From a phage: a stretch of 64,000 nt of DNA. Each line of letters starts with the position of its first letter. The stretch's first letter is position 1. The position numbers and the translations under genes were made by a program. Positions 47,918 to 58,088 of the stretch are shown here, piece after piece. The notes under the pieces were generated by a model. The model had not been told where the DNA came from. It searched no databases and saw nothing but the letters and a program-made list of their open reading frames with translations. The stretch lies in assembly GCA_013585095.1 (NCBI GenBank), contig GCA_013585095.1_3039.1; one strand, 5' to 3'.

Positions 47918-48253
47918 ATGTCTGAAGTACAACAGCTACCAATTCGTGCTGTCGGTGAATATGTTATTTTAGTTTCTGAACCTGCACAAGCCGGTGATGA
48001 AGAAGTTACAGAATCAGGACTTATTATCGGTAAACGTGTTCAAGGTGAAGTTCCTGAACTGTGTGTAGTTCACTCTGTTGGTCCTGATGTTCCTGAAGGT
48101 TTCTGCGAAGTTGGTGATTTGACTTCTCTTCCAGTTGGTCAAATTCGAAATGTTCCGCATCCTTTTGTAGCTCTGGGTCTTAAGCAGCCAAAAGAAATTA
48201 AACAAAAATTCGTTACTTGTCACTATAAAGCTATTCCGTGTCTTTATAAGTGA
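47918..48253 (+). CDS. 31: gp31 co-chaperonin (GroES-like)
   Basis: 111 aa; matches remembered T4 gp31 ([19 protein letters not shown]...). Confidence 0.9.
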
Positions 48254-48261
48254 TATAAATA
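48254..48261 (+). promoter_or_regulatory. late-promoter-like TATAAATA upstream of rIII
   Basis: exact tataaata right after the gene 31 stop, 140 nt before rIII. Confidence 0.3.
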
Positions 48262-48400
48262 ATAATATGAATTGGGTGTCGGAATAATAAGTTAACCGAA
48301 CAATTCTATGTGGTAGTCTACAACTGAGAGATCTGTCGAAAGAAGATGAAATTCAGAAGAACGTGACTACCGAGTTTTAATCTCTAACGAGAATTTTTAA

Positions 48401-48649
48401 ATGATTAAACAATTACAACACGCTCTTGAACTGCAACGAAACGCATGGAATAATGGTCACGAAAACTATGGCGCATCTATTGATGTTGAAGCCGAAGCTC
48501 TTGAAATCCTGCGTTATTTCAAACATCTGAATCCTGCTCAAACTGCATTAGCTGCTGAGCTTCAGGAAAAAGATGAACTTAAATATGCTAAGCCTCTGGC
48601 TTCTGCTGCACGAAAAGCAGTTCGTCACTTTGTGGTAACACTGAAGTAA
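48401..48649 (+). CDS. rIII: rIII lysis-inhibition accessory protein
   Basis: 82 aa as in T4; position after gene 31. Confidence 0.7.
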   Translation: MIKQLQHALELQRNAWNNGHENYGASIDVEAEALEILRYFKHLNPAQTALAAELQEKDELKYAKPLASAARKAVRHFVVTLK

Positions 48650-48894
48650 TTTATTGGAGATTCACTGCCTTAGTGTGAGCTAAAATCGAGGAGCCGTCGA
48701 ACTGTCTGATTAATGATTTGCGAATCATTATAGTTTTAAGACCCCGGCAGTTTTACGGTGTACCTCTTGAATGTGAATGATGACGGGTTTATGGTTATCC
48801 TGGTCGTTAAATATCCAAAAACCTATGTTCCCCTTGAGGGCTTGCGCAGGCAATGCCAATAAGTCCTGCATTTTCATTTAAAAGAGAATTTATA

Positions 48895-49071
48895 ATGGCA
48901 AAACAAGCTAAAGCAAAGAAAGCAGTTGAAAAGAAAGTTGGTGATTCTAAACGCGCTGGCTACAAGCGTGGGTCGAACTCTCGTATCAATCAAACTGTTG
49001 AGAAGATCATGCGCCGAGCACGTGCGGTTCTTCGAGATGATGCTTCTCGTTTTGGTAAGCAGAAAGCATAA
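48895..49071 (+). CDS. small basic protein (58 aa)
   Basis: ATG after AAAGAGAA; lysine-rich; terminator follows; track start 48853 is upstream extension. Confidence 0.35.
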   Translation: MAKQAKAKKAVEKKVGDSKRAGYKRGSNSRINQTVEKIMRRARAVLRDDASRFGKQKA

Positions 49072-49075
49072 GTTG

Positions 49076-49104
49076 AGGACTCCTTCGGGAGTCCTTTTTT
49101 ATTT
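49076..49104 (+). terminator. intrinsic terminator
   Basis: aggactccTTCGggagtcct + tttttatttt. Confidence 0.7.
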
Positions 49105-49124
49105 TCCAAAGATTGCATAAAGTT

Positions 49125-49157
49125 GTTTACAGTATGGTTCCTTTGTGATAGTATTAT
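49125..49157 (+). promoter_or_regulatory. T4-type early promoter
   Basis: gtttacagtatggttcctttgtgatagtattat. Confidence 0.5.
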
Positions 49158-49181
49158 CTTACACAAACAAAGGAGAATAAA

Positions 49182-49514
49182 ATGAAAACGATTAATCTGA
49201 ACGCTACAGTTAAAACTAAATGCTTCAATGGTAAATATGATGAAACTATGTGGTTCTTAATGGCAGTTGAAGGTGATATTATTGAAGTAGAAACAACAGA
49301 AGGTATGGGAACAGATTTCACCTTTACAATTCAAGTTCATAATTTCTTTACTGGTTGGATTTATGAATTGAATACAGTAATCGTTGGAAAAATTGAACAA
49401 AATGAATTAGGCGAATGGCATTATGTTACAGCTCGCCAACGTGCCGAACGTTTGATTGAGAAGATGAAAAAAGTTGGTAAACTTGACATGCAACATTGGA
49501 AAGTAGTAAAATAA
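49182..49514 (+). CDS. hypothetical protein
   Basis: 110 aa; early promoter and AAGGAG RBS. Confidence 0.45.
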   Translation: MKTINLNATVKTKCFNGKYDETMWFLMAVEGDIIEVETTEGMGTDFTFTIQVHNFFTGWIYELNTVIVGKIEQNELGEWHYVTARQRAERLIEKMKKVGKLDMQHWKVVK

Positions 49515-49516
49515 TT

Positions 49517-49545
49517 GTTTACTTTGGTACAGGATATGATATTAT
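49517..49545 (+). promoter_or_regulatory. T4-type early promoter with -10 inside an inverted repeat
   Basis: gtttactttGGTACAGGatatgatattatataCCTGTACC. Confidence 0.55.
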
Positions 49546-49582
49546 ATACCTGTACCGCAATTAAACATCTCGGAGAATAAAA

Positions 49583-49948
49583 ATGAACTACATCAACTTT
49601 GAACGTAAATATGTTTCTAATGGTATTGCAGGTTCTATTGATACTATTTGCCTCTGGAAACATCAAAATGGTTCAGTATGCGAAATTGAACAGTATATGA
49701 CTCCTAACTACGTTTATATGCGATTTGAAAACGGTATCACAGTTTCAATCACAATGGAAGGTTCCAACTTCAAAATCGCTCTGGATGATGATTTCCGTCA
49801 ACGCGATTTAGGGACTCATCCTTGCTGGAATGGCGTTAATCGCAAGCTTTTGGTTAAAACTTGGATTCGTCATATTCTGAGTAACAGAGCTAAACCTGAG
49901 CATCTTGAAGCAATCTTTGATGTAGTTCTTAATGAATTTGATATTTAA
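49583..49948 (+). CDS. hypothetical protein
   Basis: 121 aa; early promoter and GGAGAA RBS. Confidence 0.45.
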   Translation: MNYINFERKYVSNGIAGSIDTICLWKHQNGSVCEIEQYMTPNYVYMRFENGITVSITMEGSNFKIALDDDFRQRDLGTHPCWNGVNRKLLVKTWIRHILSNRAKPEHLEAIFDVVLNEFDI

Positions 49949-49957
49949 AATAAAATG

Positions 49958-49975
49958 AGGGGCTTTGGCCCCTTA
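49958..49975 (+). other. GC-rich stem-loop without U-tract
   Basis: aggggctttggcccct. Confidence 0.35.
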
Positions 49976-49989
49976 CTGAGGAAAATATT

Positions 49990-50277
49990 ATGTTTATGAC
50001 TACTTATTTTGATACCCGTAAAAACTTCTGCGAAGTAGTTTTCTCAAAGGCGCCTAAAGATCTTCCTGCACATTTGCAACCTACTAGCGAATCGATTAAA
50101 AACTACGTTGATGTGGTTTGTCCTTTAGAGTTTCGTACTGTAAATGGGCGCGATACTTTAGCTATCACTAAACTCAATCGTGAAATTGACATTGACCCTT
50201 CAATTGCGCGCGAAATTAATATCTCTGATATTGGTGGCGGTAATGTTAAATCGCATGGTTTTCAGATGAGGTTCTAA
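49990..50277 (+). CDS. hypothetical protein
   Basis: 95 aa ATG start. Confidence 0.4.
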   Translation: MFMTTYFDTRKNFCEVVFSKAPKDLPAHLQPTSESIKNYVDVVCPLEFRTVNGRDTLAITKLNREIDIDPSIAREINISDIGGGNVKSHGFQMRF

Positions 50278-50474
50278 TGAAATTCTTTTTGGGTCAAACT
50301 GTTGAATTAAAGGGAGTTGGTATACCTGGATTAATTTCTAAGGTTCTACCTCCATTTAAATGGAGTGGTATTCAAATAAAAGAGGCTTATATTGTTTCCT
50401 GGGTAGATGGAAATGAAGACCTTCGTATGGGTGATGAATTATCTCCTATCTATGGATTAAAGGAATTAATATGA
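50277..50474 (+). CDS. hypothetical protein
   Basis: 65 aa ATG overlapping previous stop. Confidence 0.4.
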   Translation: MKFFLGQTVELKGVGIPGLISKVLPPFKWSGIQIKEAYIVSWVDGNEDLRMGDELSPIYGLKELI

Positions 50475-50677
50475 ATATAATTAATAAGATTTTTGGAATT
50501 CAGTACATTAAGGTTACATATAAAGTAACGTATAAAGGTCCGTATACCGATGAACATGAAGAGCCACAAGTTCAGTCTATTATATTAGAAAAGGACCCTA
50601 ACTGGCCAGTTGAATTTCGTCTTCCTTGCTATGGTCATTGGGCTGATGTTGAAATTATAAGTATTGAAAATGTCTGA
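50471..50677 (+). CDS. hypothetical protein
   Basis: 68 aa ATG start. Confidence 0.4.
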   Translation: MNIINKIFGIQYIKVTYKVTYKGPYTDEHEEPQVQSIILEKDPNWPVEFRLPCYGHWADVEIISIENV

Positions 50678-51128
50678 GTTAGAGATAAGAAGCAATTTTA
50701 GATGGCCATCATGTGCATTAAGTAATTTCGCCCAATGGCCTTTTGTTATGGATGGTATCCAATTTGGAGGTCTCGAAGGATTCCTCCAAGGATGCAAGGT
50801 GAAAAATGTTGAACAACAGCGTCGTATATTTGGGTTATCCGGGCTTGCCGCCCAACAAGCTGGAAGGTCTTATGCTAGAGCTCAGGACCGTGGGACCCTC
50901 TTCTGGCTTGGAGTTCCGTTTTCAAGATACTCCCCAGCGTGGAAAGAATTATACACAAATGCATATTTTGAAGCAGCGTTCCAAAACAAGGGCTTTCGCG
51001 ATGCATTACAAGCCTCGAAAGGAAAAGTTTTGAAGCACAGCATGGCTAGTGGTCTAACAAAAGATGATACAATACTAACCGAAGCTGAATTTATTGATGT
51101 GTTAAACCTATTAAGAGACTCTCTATGA
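50670..51128 (+). CDS. NADAR / YbiA-like (DUF1768) domain protein
   Basis: SNFAQWPFVMDGIQFGGLEGFLQGCKV resembles remembered E. coli YbiA FSNFAAWPIKVDGKTWPTSEHYFQAQKF; ATG 50670. Confidence 0.6.
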   Translation: MSELEIRSNFRWPSCALSNFAQWPFVMDGIQFGGLEGFLQGCKVKNVEQQRRIFGLSGLAAQQAGRSYARAQDRGTLFWLGVPFSRYSPAWKELYTNAYFEAAFQNKGFRDALQASKGKVLKHSMASGLTKDDTILTEAEFIDVLNLLRDSL

Positions 51129-51967
51129 AGCCTACTATTTTGACTGATATTGACGGGGTGTGTTTAAGCTGGCAATCAGGCCTTCCTTATTTTGCCCAAA
51201 AATATAATCTTCCGTTGGAACATATTTTAAAAATGATTCAGGACGAAAAATTTATTTCTCCTGGTAAGCTCTTTAATTGCGATGAAGAACTTGGTGTTAA
51301 ATTAATCGAAAAGTATAATCGTTCAGATTTTATTCGCTATTTGTCTCCATATAAAGATGCCCTGTGTGTAATTAACAAATTAAAAGAAGATTATAATTTT
51401 GTAGCTGTTACAGCATTGGGTGATTCTATTGATGCTTTGCTGAATCGTCAATTTAATTTGAACGCTCTTTTTCCTGGTGCCTTCTCAGAAGTACTGATGT
51501 GTGGTCATGATTCTTCAAAAGAAGAGTTATTCAAAAAGGCAAAAGAGAAATATAACGTAATTTGTTATATTGACGATCTCGCTCACCACTGCGATCACGC
51601 GAGTGAAATATTAAATGTTCCTGTTTATTGGATGGCTCGAGGGGAGCGTGACAGTATTCCAAAAACCGCTCAGCGAGTTTATACATGGAATGATGTAGAG
51701 AATAAGCTTTTTCCATCGAAGGAAAATAAAGAAAGTTTTGATAGTGAAAAAGCTATAAAAGATGTAATTGAAAAGATGATTAAAAACGATTCTTTTCGTT
51801 GGAATACTACCTGGAGAACTCCTGGATTAAATCCATACCATCCATATTATACACATCCATATCATGTGCATCCATTTCATACATGGAACTATATTAAACC
51901 TGGTGGCATAGAGTATTTGTATAATAGACCTACTAGTGGTGATAATATTTTCCAAGGAGCATTCTAA
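51125..51967 (+). CDS. HAD-superfamily phosphatase-like protein with His/Pro/Tyr-rich C-terminus
   Basis: N-terminal ILTDIDGVCL (HAD motif I DxDxV); later CYIDDLAHH; C-terminal PYHPYYTHPYHVHPFHTW. Confidence 0.55.
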   Translation: MKPTILTDIDGVCLSWQSGLPYFAQKYNLPLEHILKMIQDEKFISPGKLFNCDEELGVKLIEKYNRSDFIRYLSPYKDALCVINKLKEDYNFVAVTALGDSIDALLNRQFNLNALFPGAFSEVLMCGHDSSKEELFKKAKEKYNVICYIDDLAHHCDHASEILNVPVYWMARGERDSIPKTAQRVYTWNDVENKLFPSKENKESFDSEKAIKDVIEKMIKNDSFRWNTTWRTPGLNPYHPYYTHPYHVHPFHTWNYIKPGGIEYLYNRPTSGDNIFQGAF

Positions 51968-52236
51968 TGTTTGTCGTTCACACTATTTATGAAAATGAAG
52001 GTAATACTACACGTGATTACGGTCACGTAAATCAATTTTTTAGATGCAATCCAGAATTCCGATCTCAAAAAGACGAACGAATTTTTAAAAAATGCGTAGA
52101 GCAAGGTTTCATTTACGTCAAGCACTGGATGCAAGGAAATAAAGTTAGAACCACGTACCACAGGTCTTTGACTGAGCTTAATGATGAATTGATTTATAAT
52201 AGAGCTGTAAACCAAACTCTAAAGGATGAACAATGA
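51967..52236 (+). CDS. hypothetical protein
   Basis: 89 aa ATG overlapping stop. Confidence 0.4.
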   Translation: MFVVHTIYENEGNTTRDYGHVNQFFRCNPEFRSQKDERIFKKCVEQGFIYVKHWMQGNKVRTTYHRSLTELNDELIYNRAVNQTLKDEQ

Positions 52237-53696
52237 TTCTTAAAATTCTGAACGAAATAGCATCTATTGGTTCAACTAAGCAGAAGCAAGCAATTCTTGA
52301 AAAGAACAAAGATAATGAATTGCTTAAACGAGTATATCGTCTGACTTATTCTCGTGGGTTACAGTATTATATCAAGAAATGGCCTAAACCTGGTATTGCT
52401 ACCCAGAGTTTTGGAATGTTGACTCTTACCGATATGCTTGACTTCATTGAATTCACGTTAGCTACTCGGAAATTGACCGGAAATGCGGCAATTGAGGAAT
52501 TAACTGGATATATTACTGACGGTAAAAAAGATGATGTTGAAGTTTTGCGTCGGGTGATGATGCGAGACCTTGAATGCGGTGCTTCAGTATCTATTGCAAA
52601 CAAAGTTTGGCCAGGTTTAATTCCTGAACAACCTCAAATGCTGGCAAGTTCTTATGATGAAAAAGGCATTAATAAGAATATCAAATTTCCAGCCTTTGCC
52701 CAATTAAAAGCTGATGGAGCTCGGTGCTTTGCTGAAGTCAGAGGTGATGAATTAGATGATGTTCGTCTTTTATCACGAGCTGGTAATGAATATCTAGGAT
52801 TAGATCTTCTCAAGGAAGAGTTAATCAAAATGACTGCAGAAGCTCGCCAGATTCATCCAGAAGGTGTGTTAATTGATGGCGAATTGGTATACCATGAGCA
52901 AGTTGAAAAGGAACCAGAAGGCCTAGATTTTCTTTTTGATGCTTATCCTGAAATTAGTAAAGCTAAAGAATTCGCTGAAGTAGCTGAATCACGTACTACT
53001 TCTAATGGAATCGCTAATAAATCTTTAAAGGGAACCATTTCTGAAAAAGAAGCACAATGCATGAAGTTTCAGGTCTGGGACTATGTTCCATTAGTAGAAA
53101 TATATGGTCTTCCAGCGTTTCGTTTAAAATATGATGTACGTTTTTCTAAACTAGAACAAATGACATCAGGCTATGATAAAGTAATTTTAATTGAAAACCA
53201 AGTAGTAAATAACCTAGATGAAGCTAAGGTAATTTACAAAAAGTATATTGACCAAGGTCTTGAAGGTATTATTCTCAAAAATATCGATGGATTATGGGAA
53301 AATGCTCGTTCAAAAAATCTTTATAAATTTAAAGAAGTAATTGATGTTGATTTAAAAATTGTAGGAATTTATCCTCACCGTAAAGACCCTACTAAAGCGG
53401 GTGGATTTATTCTTGAGTCAGAGTGTGGAAAAATTAAAGTAAATGCTGGTTCAGGCTTAAAAGATAAAGCCGGTGTAAAATCGCATGAACTTGACCGTAC
53501 TCGCATTATGGAAAACCAAAATTATTATATTGGAAAAATTCTAGAGTGCGAATGCAACGGTTGGTTAAAATCTGATGGCCGCACTGATTACGTTAAATTA
53601 TTTCTTCCGATTGCGATTCGTTTACGTGAAGATAAAACTAAAGCTAATACATTCGAGGATGTATTTGGCGATTTTCATGAGGTAACTGGTTTATGA
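52233..53696 (+). CDS. 30: ATP-dependent DNA ligase
   Basis: 487 aa as in T4; adenylation motif LKADGARCF. Confidence 0.95.
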   Translation: MILKILNEIASIGSTKQKQAILEKNKDNELLKRVYRLTYSRGLQYYIKKWPKPGIATQSFGMLTLTDMLDFIEFTLATRKLTGNAAIEELTGYITDGKKDDVEVLRRVMMRDLECGASVSIANKVWPGLIPEQPQMLASSYDEKGINKNIKFPAFAQLKADGARCFAEVRGDELDDVRLLSRAGNEYLGLDLLKEELIKMTAEARQIHPEGVLIDGELVYHEQVEKEPEGLDFLFDAYPEISKAKEFAEVAESRTTSNGIANKSLKGTISEKEAQCMKFQVWDYVPLVEIYGLPAFRLKYDVRFSKLEQMTSGYDKVILIENQVVNNLDEAKVIYKKYIDQGLEGIILKNIDGLWENARSKNLYKFKEVIDVDLKIVGIYPHRKDPTKAGGFILESECGKIKVNAGSGLKDKAGVKSHELDRTRIMENQNYYIGKILECECNGWLKSDGRTDYVKLFLPIAIRLREDKTKANTFEDVFGDFHEVTGL

Positions 53697-53881
53697 AAGC
53701 TTACTTAGAAACAATTGTCATTGCTCAAAAAGAAGGTGGAGATGTTTCTACTTCTGTATCACAAGTCATTCTCGAATTTGTAGATGCATATGCTTATAAT
53801 AAATTCACAGAAACATTTGATGCTTATGAAAAAGGTCCAAAGTTTGAAATATATCGTACTCTCTTACCAATAGATTATTAA
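53693..53881 (+). CDS. hypothetical protein
   Basis: 62 aa; terminator hairpin follows. Confidence 0.4.
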   Translation: MKAYLETIVIAQKEGGDVSTSVSQVILEFVDAYAYNKFTETFDAYEKGPKFEIYRTLLPIDY

Positions 53882-53900
53882 AGGCCTTCGGGCCTTTAAT
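53881..53900 (+). terminator. UUCG-tetraloop hairpin terminator before the alt late promoter
   Basis: aaggccTTCGggcctt + taatttta. Confidence 0.5.
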
Positions 53901-53902
53901 TT

Positions 53903-53910
53903 TATAAATA
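53903..53910 (+). promoter_or_regulatory. late promoter TATAAATA upstream of alt
   Basis: tataaata about 24 nt upstream of the alt ATG; Alt is a late, virion-packaged protein. Confidence 0.55.
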
Positions 53911-53933
53911 GAATAAACACTAGAGAGGATATG

Positions 53934-56027
53934 ATGGAACTCATTACAGAATTATTTGACGAAGATACTACTCTTCCGATTACAAACTTAAATCCAAAGA
54001 AGAAAATACCACAAATTTTTTCAGTTCATGTTGATGATGCAATTGAACAACCAGGCTTTCGTTTATGTACCTATACATCTGGAGGTGATACTAATCGTGA
54101 TTTAAAGATGGGCGATAAAATGATGCATATTGTTCCTTTTACATTAACTGCTAAAGGTTCAATTGCTAAATTAAAAGGTCTTGGTCCAAGCCCGATTAAT
54201 TATATCAATTCAGTTTTTACTGTTGCAATGCAAACAATGCGTCAATATAAAATTGATGCCTGCATGCTTCGTATTCTTAAGTCTAAAACCGCCGGTCAAG
54301 CTCGACAAATTCAACTTATTGCTGATAGACTCATCCGCAGTCGTTCAGGTGGCAGATACGTCCTTCTTAAGGAACTCTGGGATTACGATAAAAAGTATGC
54401 ATATATTCTTATACATCGTAAAAATGTATCACTAGAAGACATTCCAGGAGTTCCAGAAATTAGCACCGAGCTCTTTACTAAAGTTGAATCGAAGGTCGGT
54501 GATGTTTATATCAATAAAGATAATGGAGCTCAAGTAACTAAAAATGAGGCAATTGCAGCATCTATTGCACAAGAAAATGATAAACGTTCTGACCAAGCTG
54601 TAATCGTTAAAGTTAAAATTTCCCGTAGAGCAATTGCGCAAAGTCAATCATTGGAATCTTCTAGATTTGAAAGTGAATTATTCCAGAAGTATGAATCTAC
54701 AGCAGCTAATTTTAATAAACCTGCTACCGCTCCTTTAATTCCCGAAGCAGAAGAAATGAAGCTTGGAATTAATTCATTAGCTTCTAAAACTAAGGCAGCA
54801 AAAATTATTGCCGAAGGAACTGCAGATGAACTTCACTATGACTATAAATTCTTTTCAAAAAGTGAGGTTGATGAAGTTTCAGAAAAAATTAAAGATGTAA
54901 TTCTTAATGCGATTAAAAATGAACCAACTACTTCAATAAAATGTTTAGAGAAATACGCAGCAGCTGTTAATCAACTCTTTGAAGAATATAAAGATAATTG
55001 GCTTGATAAACATAATAAAACTCGTAAAGGGCAGCCAGATGAAGTCTGGGAAGAAATGACTAAAAATTCCTGGAACGCAGCAAAAACTAAATTCCTCAAA
55101 AGAATGATTTATAGTTTTTCTGGAATTGGTGCAGGTCCAATGATTGATATTACTATTGCCCGTGATGGTTCTAAATATACTCCATCACAAAAGCGCGGCA
55201 TTAGAGAGTATTGTGGATCAGGATATACTGACATTAATAATCTTCTTTTAGGTCGTTACAATCCAGAACGATATGATGTAATGAGTGAAAAAGAAATTGA
55301 ATCTGCTATAAATAATTTAGATTCAGCTTTTGAAAATGGTGACCGCATACCGGAAGGCATTACAGTTTATCGTGCTCAAAGTATGACTGCTCCTATATAC
55401 GAAGCACTAGTTAAAAATAAAGTATTCTATTTCAGAAATTTTGTATCTACTTCTTTAACTCCTATCATTTTTGGACGTTTTGGAATTACACATGCTGGTA
55501 TTGGTCTTTTAGAACCAGAAGCTCGCAATGAATTAACAGTTGATAAAAATGAAGAAGGAATAACTATTAATCCAAGCGAAATAAGAGCGTATAAAGAAAA
55601 TCCTGAATACGTTAAAGTTCAAATAGGATGGGCAATTGATGGAGCTCATAAAGTTAATGTTGTATATCCAGGAAGTCTCGGAATAGCAACCGAAGCTGAA
55701 GTTATTCTACCACGCGGATTGATGGTCAAAGTTAATAAAATAACTGATGCTTCTAATAACGACGGAACAACATCTAATAATACAAAACTCATTCAAGCTG
55801 AAGTTATGACTACGGAAGAACTCACCGAATCCGTAATTTATGACGGTGACCGTCTAATGGAAACCGGCGAAGTAGTTGCAATGACAGGTGATATTGAAAT
55901 AGAAGACAGAGTTGACTTTGCATCATTTGTTTCATCAAATGTTAAACAAAAAGTAGAATCATCTCTTGGAATTATTGCATCTTGCATAGATATTGCAAAC
56001 ATGCCTTACAAGTTCGTTCAAGGATAA
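53934..56027 (+). CDS. alt: Alt ADP-ribosyltransferase (copy 1)
   Basis: N-terminus MELITELFDEDTTLPITNLNPKKKIPQIF matches remembered T4 Alt; R (VYRAQS), STS (FVSTSL), ExE (ATEAEVILPRG); late promoter upstream. Confidence 0.85.
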   Translation: MELITELFDEDTTLPITNLNPKKKIPQIFSVHVDDAIEQPGFRLCTYTSGGDTNRDLKMGDKMMHIVPFTLTAKGSIAKLKGLGPSPINYINSVFTVAMQTMRQYKIDACMLRILKSKTAGQARQIQLIADRLIRSRSGGRYVLLKELWDYDKKYAYILIHRKNVSLEDIPGVPEISTELFTKVESKVGDVYINKDNGAQVTKNEAIAASIAQENDKRSDQAVIVKVKISRRAIAQSQSLESSRFESELFQKYESTAANFNKPATAPLIPEAEEMKLGINSLASKTKAAKIIAEGTADELHYDYKFFSKSEVDEVSEKIKDVILNAIKNEPTTSIKCLEKYAAAVNQLFEEYKDNWLDKHNKTRKGQPDEVWEEMTKNSWNAAKTKFLKRMIYSFSGIGAGPMIDITIARDGSKYTPSQKRGIREYCGSGYTDINNLLLGRYNPERYDVMSEKEIESAINNLDSAFENGDRIPEGITVYRAQSMTAPIYEALVKNKVFYFRNFVSTSLTPIIFGRFGITHAGIGLLEPEARNELTVDKNEEGITINPSEIRAYKENPEYVKVQIGWAIDGAHKVNVVYPGSLGIATEAEVILPRGLMVKVNKITDASNNDGTTSNNTKLIQAEVMTTEELTESVIYDGDRLMETGEVVAMTGDIEIEDRVDFASFVSSNVKQKVESSLGIIASCIDIANMPYKFVQG

Positions 56028-56030
56028 ATC

Positions 56031-58088
56031 ATGGAACTTATTACAGAATTATTTGACGGCGCTTCGGCGCCGGTTGTTAACTTAAATCCTAAGCATAAAA
56101 TACCACAAATTTTTGCTATTCAAGCCGGCGAAGAAAGTGTGCTTCCTGGATTTAGATTTTGTACATACACCTCTGGCGGTGATACAAATAAAAACGTTAA
56201 GCCAGGCGACAAAATGATGCATATCGTAATGATAGGTGTCAACGAGAAATTATCGCTGGTTAAGCTTAGAAACTTGGGTGGAAATCCAATTGGCGTCATT
56301 AATGCTGTTTTTGATACTGCTCTTCAAACAATGAAACAGTATAAAATTGACGCATGCCTATTCCGCGTACTAAAAAGTAAAACAAATGGCGCTGCTCGTC
56401 AAATGCAAGTTATTGCTGACCGTTTAGTACGTACTAAAGGAGCAGGTCGATATGTTCTTTTAAAGGAAATCTGGGATTATGATAAAAAGTACGCATATAT
56501 TATGGTTTACCGTAAAAATGCCAATTTAGAAGACATTCCAGGTGTACCTCCTATTTCAACTGAGTTATTCACAAAAGTTGAATCAAAGGTTGGTGATGTT
56601 TATGTAGACGTTAAAACAGGTAATGCTGTTCCTAAAGCTGTCGCTGTTGCTGCTTCTATTGCTTTAGAAAATGATAAGCGCACTGATCAAGCTGTTATTC
56701 AGAAAACTAAAATTAGTCGTCGATTAGCAGCACAAGCTCAATATTCTACTGTCGATGCTTCACTTCAGGGTGATAGCTTCGCTGCCAAGAAATATCAAGA
56801 GTTTGAATCTAAAGTTCCGGTATATAAAGCAGAAGGACCAATGAACTCCGGGGTTATCCAGATTGGTTCAAACTTTAGCAAAGGAGCTATCGGTGGTATG
56901 AGAAGTGCTTCTCGTTTTAAATCTAACGATTATGAACTAGAAAACTTCCGAAATCATATTGCATTAGCACATGCACGTTTACGTGATCCATCTATCAAGT
57001 TGCAGAGCGATATAACATATCAAGGTTCTCAAGAATATTTAAAGAATAAAGAATTCTTTGATTATAAAACTGATAAAATTTTAAGCGATCTTGCTGACAT
57101 TAATATTTCTAATAGCTTTGATGTTATTAAGAAAATTATCAATGATTTAGTTAAAGGTTCTAAAGCTACACCAGATGAAAAGACAGCTATTATTCAATTT
57201 GTCATGAATGGCATTTATAAATTGATTAATGAATCTGCCGCTCAGGCATATGAATATGCAAGTACTGAAGTAACTCCAAAAGGATTAACTCAGGCTGAGT
57301 CTGATGTAATTGAAGATTATTGTGCAGATTCATATGTTGAAATGAACTCGTTCCTTTTGGGTAAACCAGATTCTACCCGTGAAGAATATATGGAACGAGC
57401 TATTAAACATATTGAGACTCTTGATTCTGCATTCGCTAAAGGTTCAGTTCTTCCTCCAGGAACTACACTTTACCGTGGACAAGAAGTTACCTTTAAAACT
57501 TTGCGTCATAACATTGAAAATAAAATGTTCTATTTCAAGAACTTCGTATCCACATCGCTTAAACCAAATATCTTCGGTGAGCATGGTAAAAACTATATGG
57601 CTCTAGATGATTCCGGCGCAGTATTTTCTGGCGAAGGAGAAGGTTCCGTTGATGCAGAAGATTTGATGCATATGGGTAGTCATTCTACATATGCTAATGA
57701 AGATGCTGAAACTAGCGTGGGTATGGTAATTAAAGGAGCTGAGCGAATCAAAGTTATCGTTCCAGGTCATTTATCAGGATTTCCATCAGAAGCTGAAGTT
57801 ATTCTACCGCGTGGAATTTTACTGAAGATTAATAAAGTGAGCACGTACTTTATGAAAGAAACTGCTTATAACAAGTATCTAATAGAAGGTACAATCGTTC
57901 CTCCTTCTGAACAATTAGAGGAATCGGTATATGATGGCGACCATCTAATGGAAACTGGTGAAGTTCGTCCAATGGCTGGATTTAATCAATTCCTTGTAGA
58001 AGAATCAAAAGAAGAGGAAAACGAAGTTTCTCAAATCTTGGCTTCTTTGGTTAACATCAACGGAATGTCTAAAAAGTTCAAAATGTAG
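56031..58088 (+). CDS. Alt-like ADP-ribosyltransferase paralog (copy 2)
   Basis: 685 aa; shared N- and C-termini with copy 1, divergent middle; YRGQE, FVSTSL, PSEAEVILPRG. Confidence 0.8.
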   Translation: MELITELFDGASAPVVNLNPKHKIPQIFAIQAGEESVLPGFRFCTYTSGGDTNKNVKPGDKMMHIVMIGVNEKLSLVKLRNLGGNPIGVINAVFDTALQTMKQYKIDACLFRVLKSKTNGAARQMQVIADRLVRTKGAGRYVLLKEIWDYDKKYAYIMVYRKNANLEDIPGVPPISTELFTKVESKVGDVYVDVKTGNAVPKAVAVAASIALENDKRTDQAVIQKTKISRRLAAQAQYSTVDASLQGDSFAAKKYQEFESKVPVYKAEGPMNSGVIQIGSNFSKGAIGGMRSASRFKSNDYELENFRNHIALAHARLRDPSIKLQSDITYQGSQEYLKNKEFFDYKTDKILSDLADINISNSFDVIKKIINDLVKGSKATPDEKTAIIQFVMNGIYKLINESAAQAYEYASTEVTPKGLTQAESDVIEDYCADSYVEMNSFLLGKPDSTREEYMERAIKHIETLDSAFAKGSVLPPGTTLYRGQEVTFKTLRHNIENKMFYFKNFVSTSLKPNIFGEHGKNYMALDDSGAVFSGEGEGSVDAEDLMHMGSHSTYANEDAETSVGMVIKGAERIKVIVPGHLSGFPSEAEVILPRGILLKINKVSTYFMKETAYNKYLIEGTIVPPSEQLEESVYDGDHLMETGEVRPMAGFNQFLVEESKEEENEVSQILASLVNINGMSKKFKM

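Follow-up and report, generated by a model that had tools for sequence, protein, structure and literature searches.

Gene 30.3 of bacteriophage T4 encodes the closest described counterpart of the locus considered here, a protein that Johannesman et al. renamed AdfN (Nat Commun 2025, PMC11825919). T4 AdfN strips ADP-ribose off phage DNA and defeats DarTG1: T4 without AdfN is DarTG1-sensitive, and ectopic expression of AdfN rescues RB69 (PMC11825919). The purified T4 protein alone removes ADP-ribose from DarT1-modified DNA in vitro, and its E36A and K43A variants are defective (PMC11825919). Hydrolysis of guanine-ADPr in vitro by the T4 protein has also been demonstrated independently (Toxins 2024, PMC11125620). 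The residue on the last strand is His in phage gp30.3-type NADARs, Glu in the YbiA family and Asp in the DarT1-linked NADARs (PMC11125620). In cells that are not infected, T4 AdfN is no substitute for DarG1 (PMC11825919, PMC11125620). Its full activity is confined to infection by T-even phages and may depend on another T-even protein (PMC11825919), which leaves room for a partner. The searchable literature yielded no functional study of the adjacent gene 30.2 or its product.

The window analyzed here, a 64,000-nucleotide stretch of phage DNA, comes from a T4-like phage (Tequatrovirus). Gene 30.3 occupies the same place in it as in T4, between 30.4 and 30.2. The features of the region are as follows.

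50670-51128, + strand: gene 30.3 (adfN), a full-length NADAR-family protein of 152 aa, assigned from PF08010, identity to T4 and AF2/Foldseek.
50775-50798, + strand: catalytic Glu36 (GAA, 50775-50777) to Lys43 (AAG, 50796-50798) in the EGFLQGCK motif, from the alignment and PMC11825919.
51036-51038, + strand: codon (CAC) of His123, the last-strand residue of gp30.3, invariant in the 30.3-family alignment.
50806-51033, + strand: ORF 30.3' (75 aa), in another frame within 30.3, from the ORF list and the T4 annotation.
51125-51128, + strand: ATGA junction of the 30.3 stop and the 30.2 start, read from the sequence.
51125-51724, + strand: gene 30.2, residues 1-200, predicted HAD domain with a helical C1-type cap, nearest to 5'(3')-deoxyribonucleotidases (NT5C).
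51725-51967, + strand: C-terminal tail of gene 30.2, residues ~201-280, delimited by pLDDT and the alignment of relatives.
51967-52236, + strand: gene 30.1 (DUF3045), from PF11243 (E=1e-63) and the T4 map.
52233-53696, + strand: gene 30, ATP-dependent DNA ligase, from the T4 map.
53931-56027 and 56031-58088, + strand: two tandem full-length alt paralogs, from identity to T4 Alt (70% and 41%, respectively), given as context only.

An earlier note on this DNA had described two overlapping frames upstream of a pair of alt genes, and both are present on the + strand, at 50670-51128 and 51125-51967. The TGA stop of 30.3 (51126-51128) shares bases with the ATG of 30.2 (51125-51127). Similar overlaps appear in the ORF list at the junctions 30.6/30.5, 30.5/30.4, 30.4/30.3, 30.2/30.1, 30.1/30 and 30/alt.1. 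Since such junctions run throughout the early gene cluster, the ATGA overlap is not specific to this pair and loses its value as a sign of coupling. A scan of positions 48000-54200 for promoters and terminators gave no excess of sites over shuffled sequence, and we therefore build no operon claim on it. Within 30.3, the 30.3' frame is annotated in T4 as an internal translation product. Its 75 codons are open in 12 of 13 relatives, in 8 of which the ATG is replaced, and its coding status is doubtful.

The product of gene 30.3 matches Pfam PF08010 (Phage_30_3) with E=8.6e-70 (233 bits, cutoff 36). It aligns end to end with T4 gp30.3 at equal length, with 150 of 152 residues identical. Glu36 and His123 are invariant among 40 aligned members of the gp30.3 family, Lys43 is at least 90% conserved, and the codons of all three were confirmed directly in the window sequence. 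The C-terminal helix is intact (residues 138-151 in the model). With its full 152 aa, the window protein differs from the RB69 frameshift allele, which is 15 residues shorter.

The NADAR/YbiA-like call made in the earlier note relied on a motif block, SNFAQWPFVMDGIQFGGLEGFLQGCKV, which forms residues 18-44 of the 152-aa ORF at 50670-51128. In the Pfam search, the window protein itself does not match the NADAR family PF08719, and PF08010 scores instead; a single-sequence search of PDB sequences returned an unrelated best match at E=0.82. Among the 40 relatives, however, 16 match PF08719 (best 1.5e-7), and a gp30.3-family profile reaches YbiA (2b3w) with E=0.01 across the flagged block (SNFA...E.F.Q..K). 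The AF2 model (pLDDT 93.5, pTM 0.89) has the YbiA fold, with small β-sheets beside a helical core, and finds YbiA (2b3w), PnNADAR (8bau) and G. lovleyi NADAR (8bat) as its top three PDB folds in Foldseek; these NADAR structures are also its sole convincing PDB matches. With YbiA as the top fold match, the catalytic Glu36 and Lys43 kept, and the profile and the matches of relatives pointing the same way, the call holds: the ORF encodes a NADAR/YbiA-like protein of the phage gp30.3/AdfN clade. NADARs of the gp30.3 type are also present in phages outside the Straboviridae, among them Rhizobium phage RHph_Y68 and Ralstonia phage RSP15.

Comparison with the known systems places the protein closest to T4 AdfN, with which it shares its length, Glu36, Lys43 and His123, the intact C-terminal helix and the site between 30.4 and 30.2. 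The window allele differs from T4 AdfN by the substitutions I104F and I125M, and the activity ascribed to it below is inferred. The NADAR antitoxins associated with DarG1/DarT1 (the BC4488 family and G. lovleyi NADAR 8bat) have the same fold as gp30.3, and T4 AdfN runs the same reaction as they do, the removal of ADP-ribose from DNA guanine. In contrast to these, gp30.3 is an orphan, flanked by 30.4 and 30.2 with no adjacent DarT, and carries His rather than Asp on its last strand. E. coli YbiA (2b3w, PF08719) is the best structural match (E=8.8e-5, TM 0.69), but it is only 17% identical to gp30.3 and has a last-strand Glu in place of His.

Near-identity to T4 AdfN suggests that the window protein is a guanine-ADP-ribose DNA glycohydrolase and an anti-DarTG1 factor. 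In such a pathway, the host DarT1 toxin would ADP-ribosylate guanines in replicating phage DNA, and AdfN would hydrolyze the N-glycosidic bond and free ADP-ribose, with Glu36, Lys43 and, on the last strand, the His123 typical of phage NADARs as its catalytic residues. Reversal of the DarT1 damage would then let replication continue in DarTG1-carrying hosts, and the allele predicts that the source phage is resistant to DarTG1. The NADAR and anti-DarT reading of gene 30.3 is right and already published. What the earlier note found is correct but mostly known, because the activity of AdfN has been described for the T4 protein; gene 30.3, as an allele of an anti-DarTG1 enzyme already in the literature, calls for no more work of discovery.

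The 280-aa gp30.2 (51125-51967) is 95% identical to T4 gp30.2 and matches phrog_420 with E=3.6e-92. The motifs DIDGV and CYIDDL, which had been read as HAD motif I and a DD motif, are found at residues 8-12 and 147-152 and belong to a set of four HAD motifs: I, D8-x-D10-G; II, T96; III, K132; and IV, D150-D151. In 40 relatives, D8, D10 and K132 are invariant and T96, D150 and D151 are at least 90% conserved; the first three stay invariant in 118 divergent relatives. The core of the AF2 model has pLDDT above 90 and forms a Rossmann-like α/β HAD core, with cap helices (16-26, 32-40, 46-49 and 54-65) inserted between strands 1 and 2, after motif I. Foldseek gives 90 matches at E≤1e-3, the best 50 of the 90 being all HAD-fold, and the best is a cytosolic 5'(3')-deoxyribonucleotidase (E=1.9e-8).

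Searched by itself, the gp30.2 of the window had no HAD match with E≤1 in either Pfam (PF00702 and PF13419 included) or NCBIfam, did not pass the Pfam NT5C gathering threshold, and gave nothing significant among PDB sequences (best E=1.1). Spurious weak matches to thiamine pyrophosphokinase are all that gp30.2 yields in Pfam and NCBIfam. A profile of 40 sequences reached cdN at E=0.1, and a broader one was needed: built from 118 sequences, it matches the deoxyribonucleotidase-like 3bwv over its full length (E=6.5e-7), followed by mdN/cdN and further nucleotide phosphatases. Pfam NT5C (PF06941) is matched by 43 of the 118 relatives at E≤0.01 (best 4.2e-10), Hydrolase by 20 and HAD_2 by 16. The four motifs, the Foldseek result, the 118-sequence profile and the NT5C matches of relatives all support the HAD call, which is right: ORF 51125-51967 encodes a HAD-type protein, predicted to be a phosphatase. 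Neither of the two proteins matches a Pfam NADAR or HAD model directly; for both, the family relationships had to be drawn from family profiles and predicted structures, which confirmed them.

With cdN, mdN and the bacterial 3bwv (NT5C), gp30.2 shares the HAD core, the DxDGV form of motif I, the helical cap and an aromatic residue at +8 from the nucleophile. The latter, Trp16, is at least 90% conserved and aligns with cdN Phe18, the residue that stacks on the base of the substrate. Identity to these enzymes is 14-20%, and gp30.2 has an extra tail of ~80 residues that is predicted to be disordered. The HAD phosphatase domain of T4 PseT is likewise phage-encoded, has the HAD catalytic motifs and gives weak profile matches, but gp30.2 has a cap and no kinase domain, and the similarity is far below that to the nucleotidases. 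Because gp30.2 resembles 5'(3')-deoxyribonucleotidases most, its substrate, judged by motifs, fold and family links, is most likely small and nucleotide-like, for example a (deoxy)nucleoside monophosphate. Near-universal in the T4 family (~1,440 phage records; ~1,300 cluster representatives), the gene keeps a conserved place next to DNA ligase, and the active site of its product is clearly HAD/nucleotidase-like. Identifying the substrate would close a gap in the nucleotide or DNA metabolism of T4, and would also decide any bearing on the T-even dependence of AdfN. Among the fusion partners of distant relatives, the sole informative case is P0254, which has a DNA-polymerase-like N-terminus.

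We consider it highly probable that 30.3 (AdfN) and 30.2 (HAD phosphatase), two early genes of a T4-like phage, are neighbors whose functions are separate. Like the rest of the cluster, they have overlapping stop and start codons and are taken to be co-transcribed, and gp30.2 would act as a Mg2+-dependent, capped HAD phosphatase that dephosphorylates a small nucleotide-like substrate.

The ligase gene is downstream of gp30.2 in 71 of 79 loci, at a distance of up to 400 bp in 63. This tight and conserved linkage raises an alternative role for gp30.2 as a DNA-end 3'-phosphatase that readies nicks for ligase, analogous to the HAD domain of PNKP. Weak polynucleotide kinase matches (phrog_415, E=0.004 for gp30.2 and 5e-4 for its relative P0254), a match of one relative to Pfam HAD_PNKP at 0.003, and the fusion of P0254 to a DNA-polymerase-like region are consistent with such a role. 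In the HAD superfamily, helical caps are typical of phosphatases that act on small molecules, while DNA phosphatases of the PNKP type have no cap. The model of gp30.2, however, shows a helical cap inserted behind motif I, its helices falling within residues 16-65; nucleotidases are its best matches both in Foldseek and, over the full length, by profile; and the 43 NT5C matches among 118 relatives far exceed the single PNKP match. T4 moreover already encodes the PseT 3'-phosphatase. We regard an end-healing function as unlikely.

Still less likely is the two-gene module that the earlier note envisaged. In it gp30.2 would cooperate with AdfN, for example as its T-even factor or as a phosphatase acting on an ADP-ribose-derived product. 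The two genes adjoin with the ATGA overlap here and in T4, 30.3 is directly upstream of gp30.2 in 21 of 79 loci, and the full function of AdfN is tied to T-even infection, with RB69, which supports AdfN, possessing 30.2. Both genes also occur in essentially one set of T4-like phages (roughly the same ~1,450-1,500 records, the genus counts of the two running parallel), so that co-occurrence at the genome level is compatible with cooperation, although it is also expected of any two quasi-core Straboviridae genes. Against this, gp30.2 is found within 6 kb in just 21 of 80 gp30.3-family loci, and a distance of 55-64 kb separates the two genes in Aeromonas phage 31 and in seven or more complete genomes of T4-like phages. 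The neighborhoods of the 80 gp30.3 loci and 79 gp30.2 loci thus reject 30.3-30.2 as a conserved unit. The conserved partner of gp30.2 is DNA ligase, in a 30.2-(30.1)-ligase block, and not the NADAR; 30.2 adjoins adfN only in T4's nearer relatives. Overlapping junctions are generic across the cluster, purified AdfN de-ADP-ribosylates DNA alone in vitro, and the nearest families of gp30.2 are nucleotide phosphatases rather than ADP-ribose-processing enzymes. Of the suggested ADP-ribose-processing or anti-defense module, the anti-DarT role stands through the 99%-identical T4 AdfN, while the two-gene unit does not survive the linkage counts. We give a very small chance to gp30.2 being a T-even-specific helper of AdfN, or processing what DNA de-ADP-ribosylation yields, be it a nucleotide or a derivative of ADP-ribose; if it did, 30.3-30.2 would be a real two-enzyme counter-defense unit in T-even phages.

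Least credible is that AdfN reverses or tunes ADP-ribosylation by the phage's own Alt, ModA or ModB, which would explain its site near alt: the two alt genes do lie 2.8 kb downstream of 30.3, close to the 3 kb given earlier, but this proximity follows from the fixed T4 gene order cd-31-rIII-30.x-30-alt (cd-31-30-alt being conserved T4 synteny), the NADAR of gp30.3-family loci outside T4's nearer relatives lies mostly away from the ligase-alt region, and the published guanine-ADPr DNA glycohydrolase activity comes with a DarTG1-specific phenotype, nothing in the data or papers linking it to Alt protein targets.

The C-terminal tail of gp30.2 is rich in Pro, His and Tyr and predicted to be mostly disordered (pLDDT <50 at residues 228-232, 239-261 and 271-280), save for a helix at residues 200-221. 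A short conserved motif, GGIEYLYNRPT, lies near its end (residues 260-270), and the pattern G-x-G-I-E-Y-L-x-x-Q/R-P-T turns up again in several genera of T4-like phages, beyond linkers that do not align, but not in others. The gp45-binding motif of T4 ligase and polymerase is LDFLF (PMC6212786), and its likeness to GIEYLY led us to consider the tail as a gp45 clamp-binding element. This is not supported: the ligase loop varies (LDFLF, LGFLF, LDDIFG, LDDMFG, DLFSMF) while gp30.2 stays IEYL..QPT, the third hydrophobic position is unconserved, and many genera have no tail. A separate and improbable reading is that the motif (GxGIEYLxxQPT) tethers a nucleotidase to a replication protein beside ligase.

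The window belongs to a T4-like phage. Its segment 50400-52300 shares 97.9% identity with Escherichia phage vB_Eco_F25 and has matches in about 700 Tequatrovirus-type records, and the genes of this region follow the T4 order: cd, 31.2, 31.1, 31, rIII, 30.9 to 30.4, 30.3, 30.2, 30.1, 30 (ligase), alt.1, alt. The earlier note reported a NADAR/YbiA-like ORF running into an ORF with HAD phosphatase motifs. This observation is confirmed: direct reading of the sequence finds both ORFs, the quoted motifs and the overlap between the stop of ORF1 and the start of ORF2 (ATGA). Its interpretation as a two-gene ADP-ribose-processing or anti-defence module near the Alt genes is partly supported, in that the NADAR and HAD calls and an anti-defence role for the NADAR stand, while the two-gene module and the link to Alt are not supported.

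Features of the locus
50670-51128, + strand, ORF1, counterpart of T4 gene 30.3, 152 aa
51125-51967, + strand, ORF2, counterpart of T4 gene 30.2, 280 aa
51725-51967, C-terminal tail of gp30.2 (residues ~201-280), last ~80 residues, mostly predicted disordered, Pro/His/Tyr-rich
52233-53696, DNA ligase gene, with the loop EPEGLDFLFD
53931-56027, alt paralog 1, full-length, 70% identical to T4 Alt
56031-58088, alt paralog 2, full-length, 41% identical to T4 Alt

ORF1 is the anti-DarT factor NADAR, AdfN. It is identical to T4 gp30.3 at 150/152 positions over its full length and matches Pfam PF08010 (Phage_30_3; E=8.6e-70). Across 40 gp30.3 relatives, the most distant at 35% identity, E36 and H123 never vary and K43 hardly does; 16 of the 40 match Pfam NADAR (PF08719), and the family profile matches YbiA (2b3w) across the motif block flagged previously. 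The only convincing PDB neighbours of the AlphaFold model (pLDDT 93.5) are YbiA, the Phytophthora NADAR and the DarT-associated NADAR of Geobacter lovleyi, the same three given in the published AdfN paper. Together these results bear out the recognition of ORF1 as a NADAR.

The guess of an anti-DarT role proved correct through experiments on the nearly identical T4 protein, whose gene 30.3 has been renamed adfN (Johannesman et al., Nat Commun 2025, PMC11825919). Without adfN, T4 becomes sensitive to DarTG1, a toxin-antitoxin defence; RB69, in which the native allele is 15 residues short, is rescued by ectopic expression of T4 adfN; and purified AdfN strips ADP-ribose from DarT1-modified DNA, with the E36A and K43A variants impaired (PMC11825919). 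An independent study found that T4 gp30.3 hydrolyses guanine-ADP-ribose in vitro and defined phage NADARs by a last-strand His (PMC11125620). Both the NADAR identity and the anti-DarT role are thus in the literature, and the headline gene of the locus was already known. Within gene 30.3, an overlapping ORF of 75 codons (30.3'; 50806-51033, + strand) is uninterrupted in 12 of 13 relatives, some of them at ~86% identity, and truncated in one. Eight of them have ATT, ATC or ACG in place of its ATG start; the open frame is kept without a conserved start codon.

ORF2 is a predicted HAD phosphatase of nucleotidase type, as its motifs and modelled fold indicate. The protein, 95% identical to T4 gp30.2, had no match in the curated profile libraries (Pfam, NCBIfam) and belongs to phrog_420, a family without assigned function. 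All four HAD motifs (D8-x-D10-G, T96, K132, D150-D151) are conserved in 40 relatives, and D8, D10 and K132 are invariant in a 118-member alignment spanning 21-60% identity. The AlphaFold model, confident (pLDDT above 90) across residues ~1-190, has a Rossmann-like core in which a helical segment is inserted behind strand 1. Foldseek returned 90 matches at E<=1e-3, of which the best 50 are all HAD-fold proteins, led among PDB entries by mouse cytosolic 5'(3')-deoxyribonucleotidase (E=1.9e-8). An exhaustive profile search gathered 1,305 cluster representatives of the family, and a profile including them matches the whole length of the deoxyribonucleotidase-like 3bwv (E=6.5e-7), with other nucleotide phosphatases ranking next. 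Taken one by one, 43 of the 118 members match Pfam NT5C, 20 match the generic Hydrolase model and 16 match HAD_2. The HAD call is upheld by this agreement of motifs, fold and profiles. From the nucleotidase-type matches, the chemistry is therefore most likely Mg2+-dependent hydrolysis of a small molecule, putatively nucleoside monophosphate-like. A literature search found no paper studying gp30.2, and the annotation is new, although of a known kind. A metagenomic protein of 591 aa (P0254) carries a distant HAD domain of this family at residues 385-583, and its N-terminal region matches the phage DNA-polymerase family phrog_24943 (E=1.7e-34); this fusion hints at a role for the family in DNA or nucleotide metabolism.

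The proposed pairing of the two genes was examined in IMG/VR neighbourhoods anchored on each gene separately (80 gp30.3-family and 79 gp30.2 loci). A gp30.2 gene lies within 6 kb of only 21 of the 80 NADARs and is adjacent to 14, whereas in 71 of the 79 gp30.2 loci a DNA ligase gene follows downstream in the same orientation, within 400 bp in 63, and in three more it lies upstream. Gene 30.3 is upstream in 37 of the 79 and directly adjacent in 21. In seven complete genomes common to both locus lists the two genes are ~55 kb apart, and the annotation of Aeromonas phage 31 places 30.3 at 65 kb and 30.2 at 130 kb. Junctions like this ATGA overlap are numerous in the surrounding gene cluster. Because T4-like phages carry both genes as quasi-core members (1,439 and 1,511 records, with parallel genus counts), finding the two in one genome says nothing about a partnership. 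On these data gp30.2 belongs with the ligase block rather than with the NADAR, and the module reading is not upheld. Separately, NADARs of the gp30.3 type are found on contigs of jumbo-phage size (213-424 kb) with no gp30.2 within 6 kb (L018, L019, L026, L041, L050, L053, L061, L064, L065, L071, L073, L081), as well as in Rhizobium phage RHph_Y68 and Ralstonia phage RSP15.

A different connection between the two proteins would be that gp30.2 assists AdfN. In uninfected cells T4 AdfN fails to neutralise DarT1, and it gives T5 and Bas25 hardly any help; the authors suggest that it requires another T-even protein, a requirement from which NADARs of other phage groups are free (PMC11825919). Nothing was found that singles out gp30.2 from the many T-even-specific candidates, and because AdfN works alone in vitro we consider it very improbable that gp30.2 is this protein.

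The gp30.2 tail ends in a short motif, GGIEYLYNRPT, whose consensus (G-x-G-I-E-Y-L-x-x-Q/R-P-T) recurs in several T4-like genera, preceded there by linkers that do not align, is degenerate in some Tequatroviruses (loci L083 and L085) and is absent from many genera. It resembles LDFLF, the published binding motif for the gp45 clamp in ligase and polymerase (PMC6212786), which the ligase of the window carries in its EPEGLDFLFD loop. That loop varies markedly among T4-like genera (LDFLF, LGFLF, DLFSMF, LDDIFG, LDDMFG, with long acidic insertions in some phages), and a clamp-binding function for the tail is not supported because its motif fails to co-vary with the loop.

The proximity of 30.3 and 30.2 to alt is inherited T4 synteny, and the published substrate of AdfN is guanine-ADP-ribose in DNA, not the protein targets of Alt (PMC11825919, PMC11125620); the suggested functional link to Alt is not supported. 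The two alt paralogs stand in tandem. The first is a mosaic, with a diverged middle and ends near-identical to T4 Alt, and the second occupies the place of the T4 remnants alt.-1 and alt.-2.
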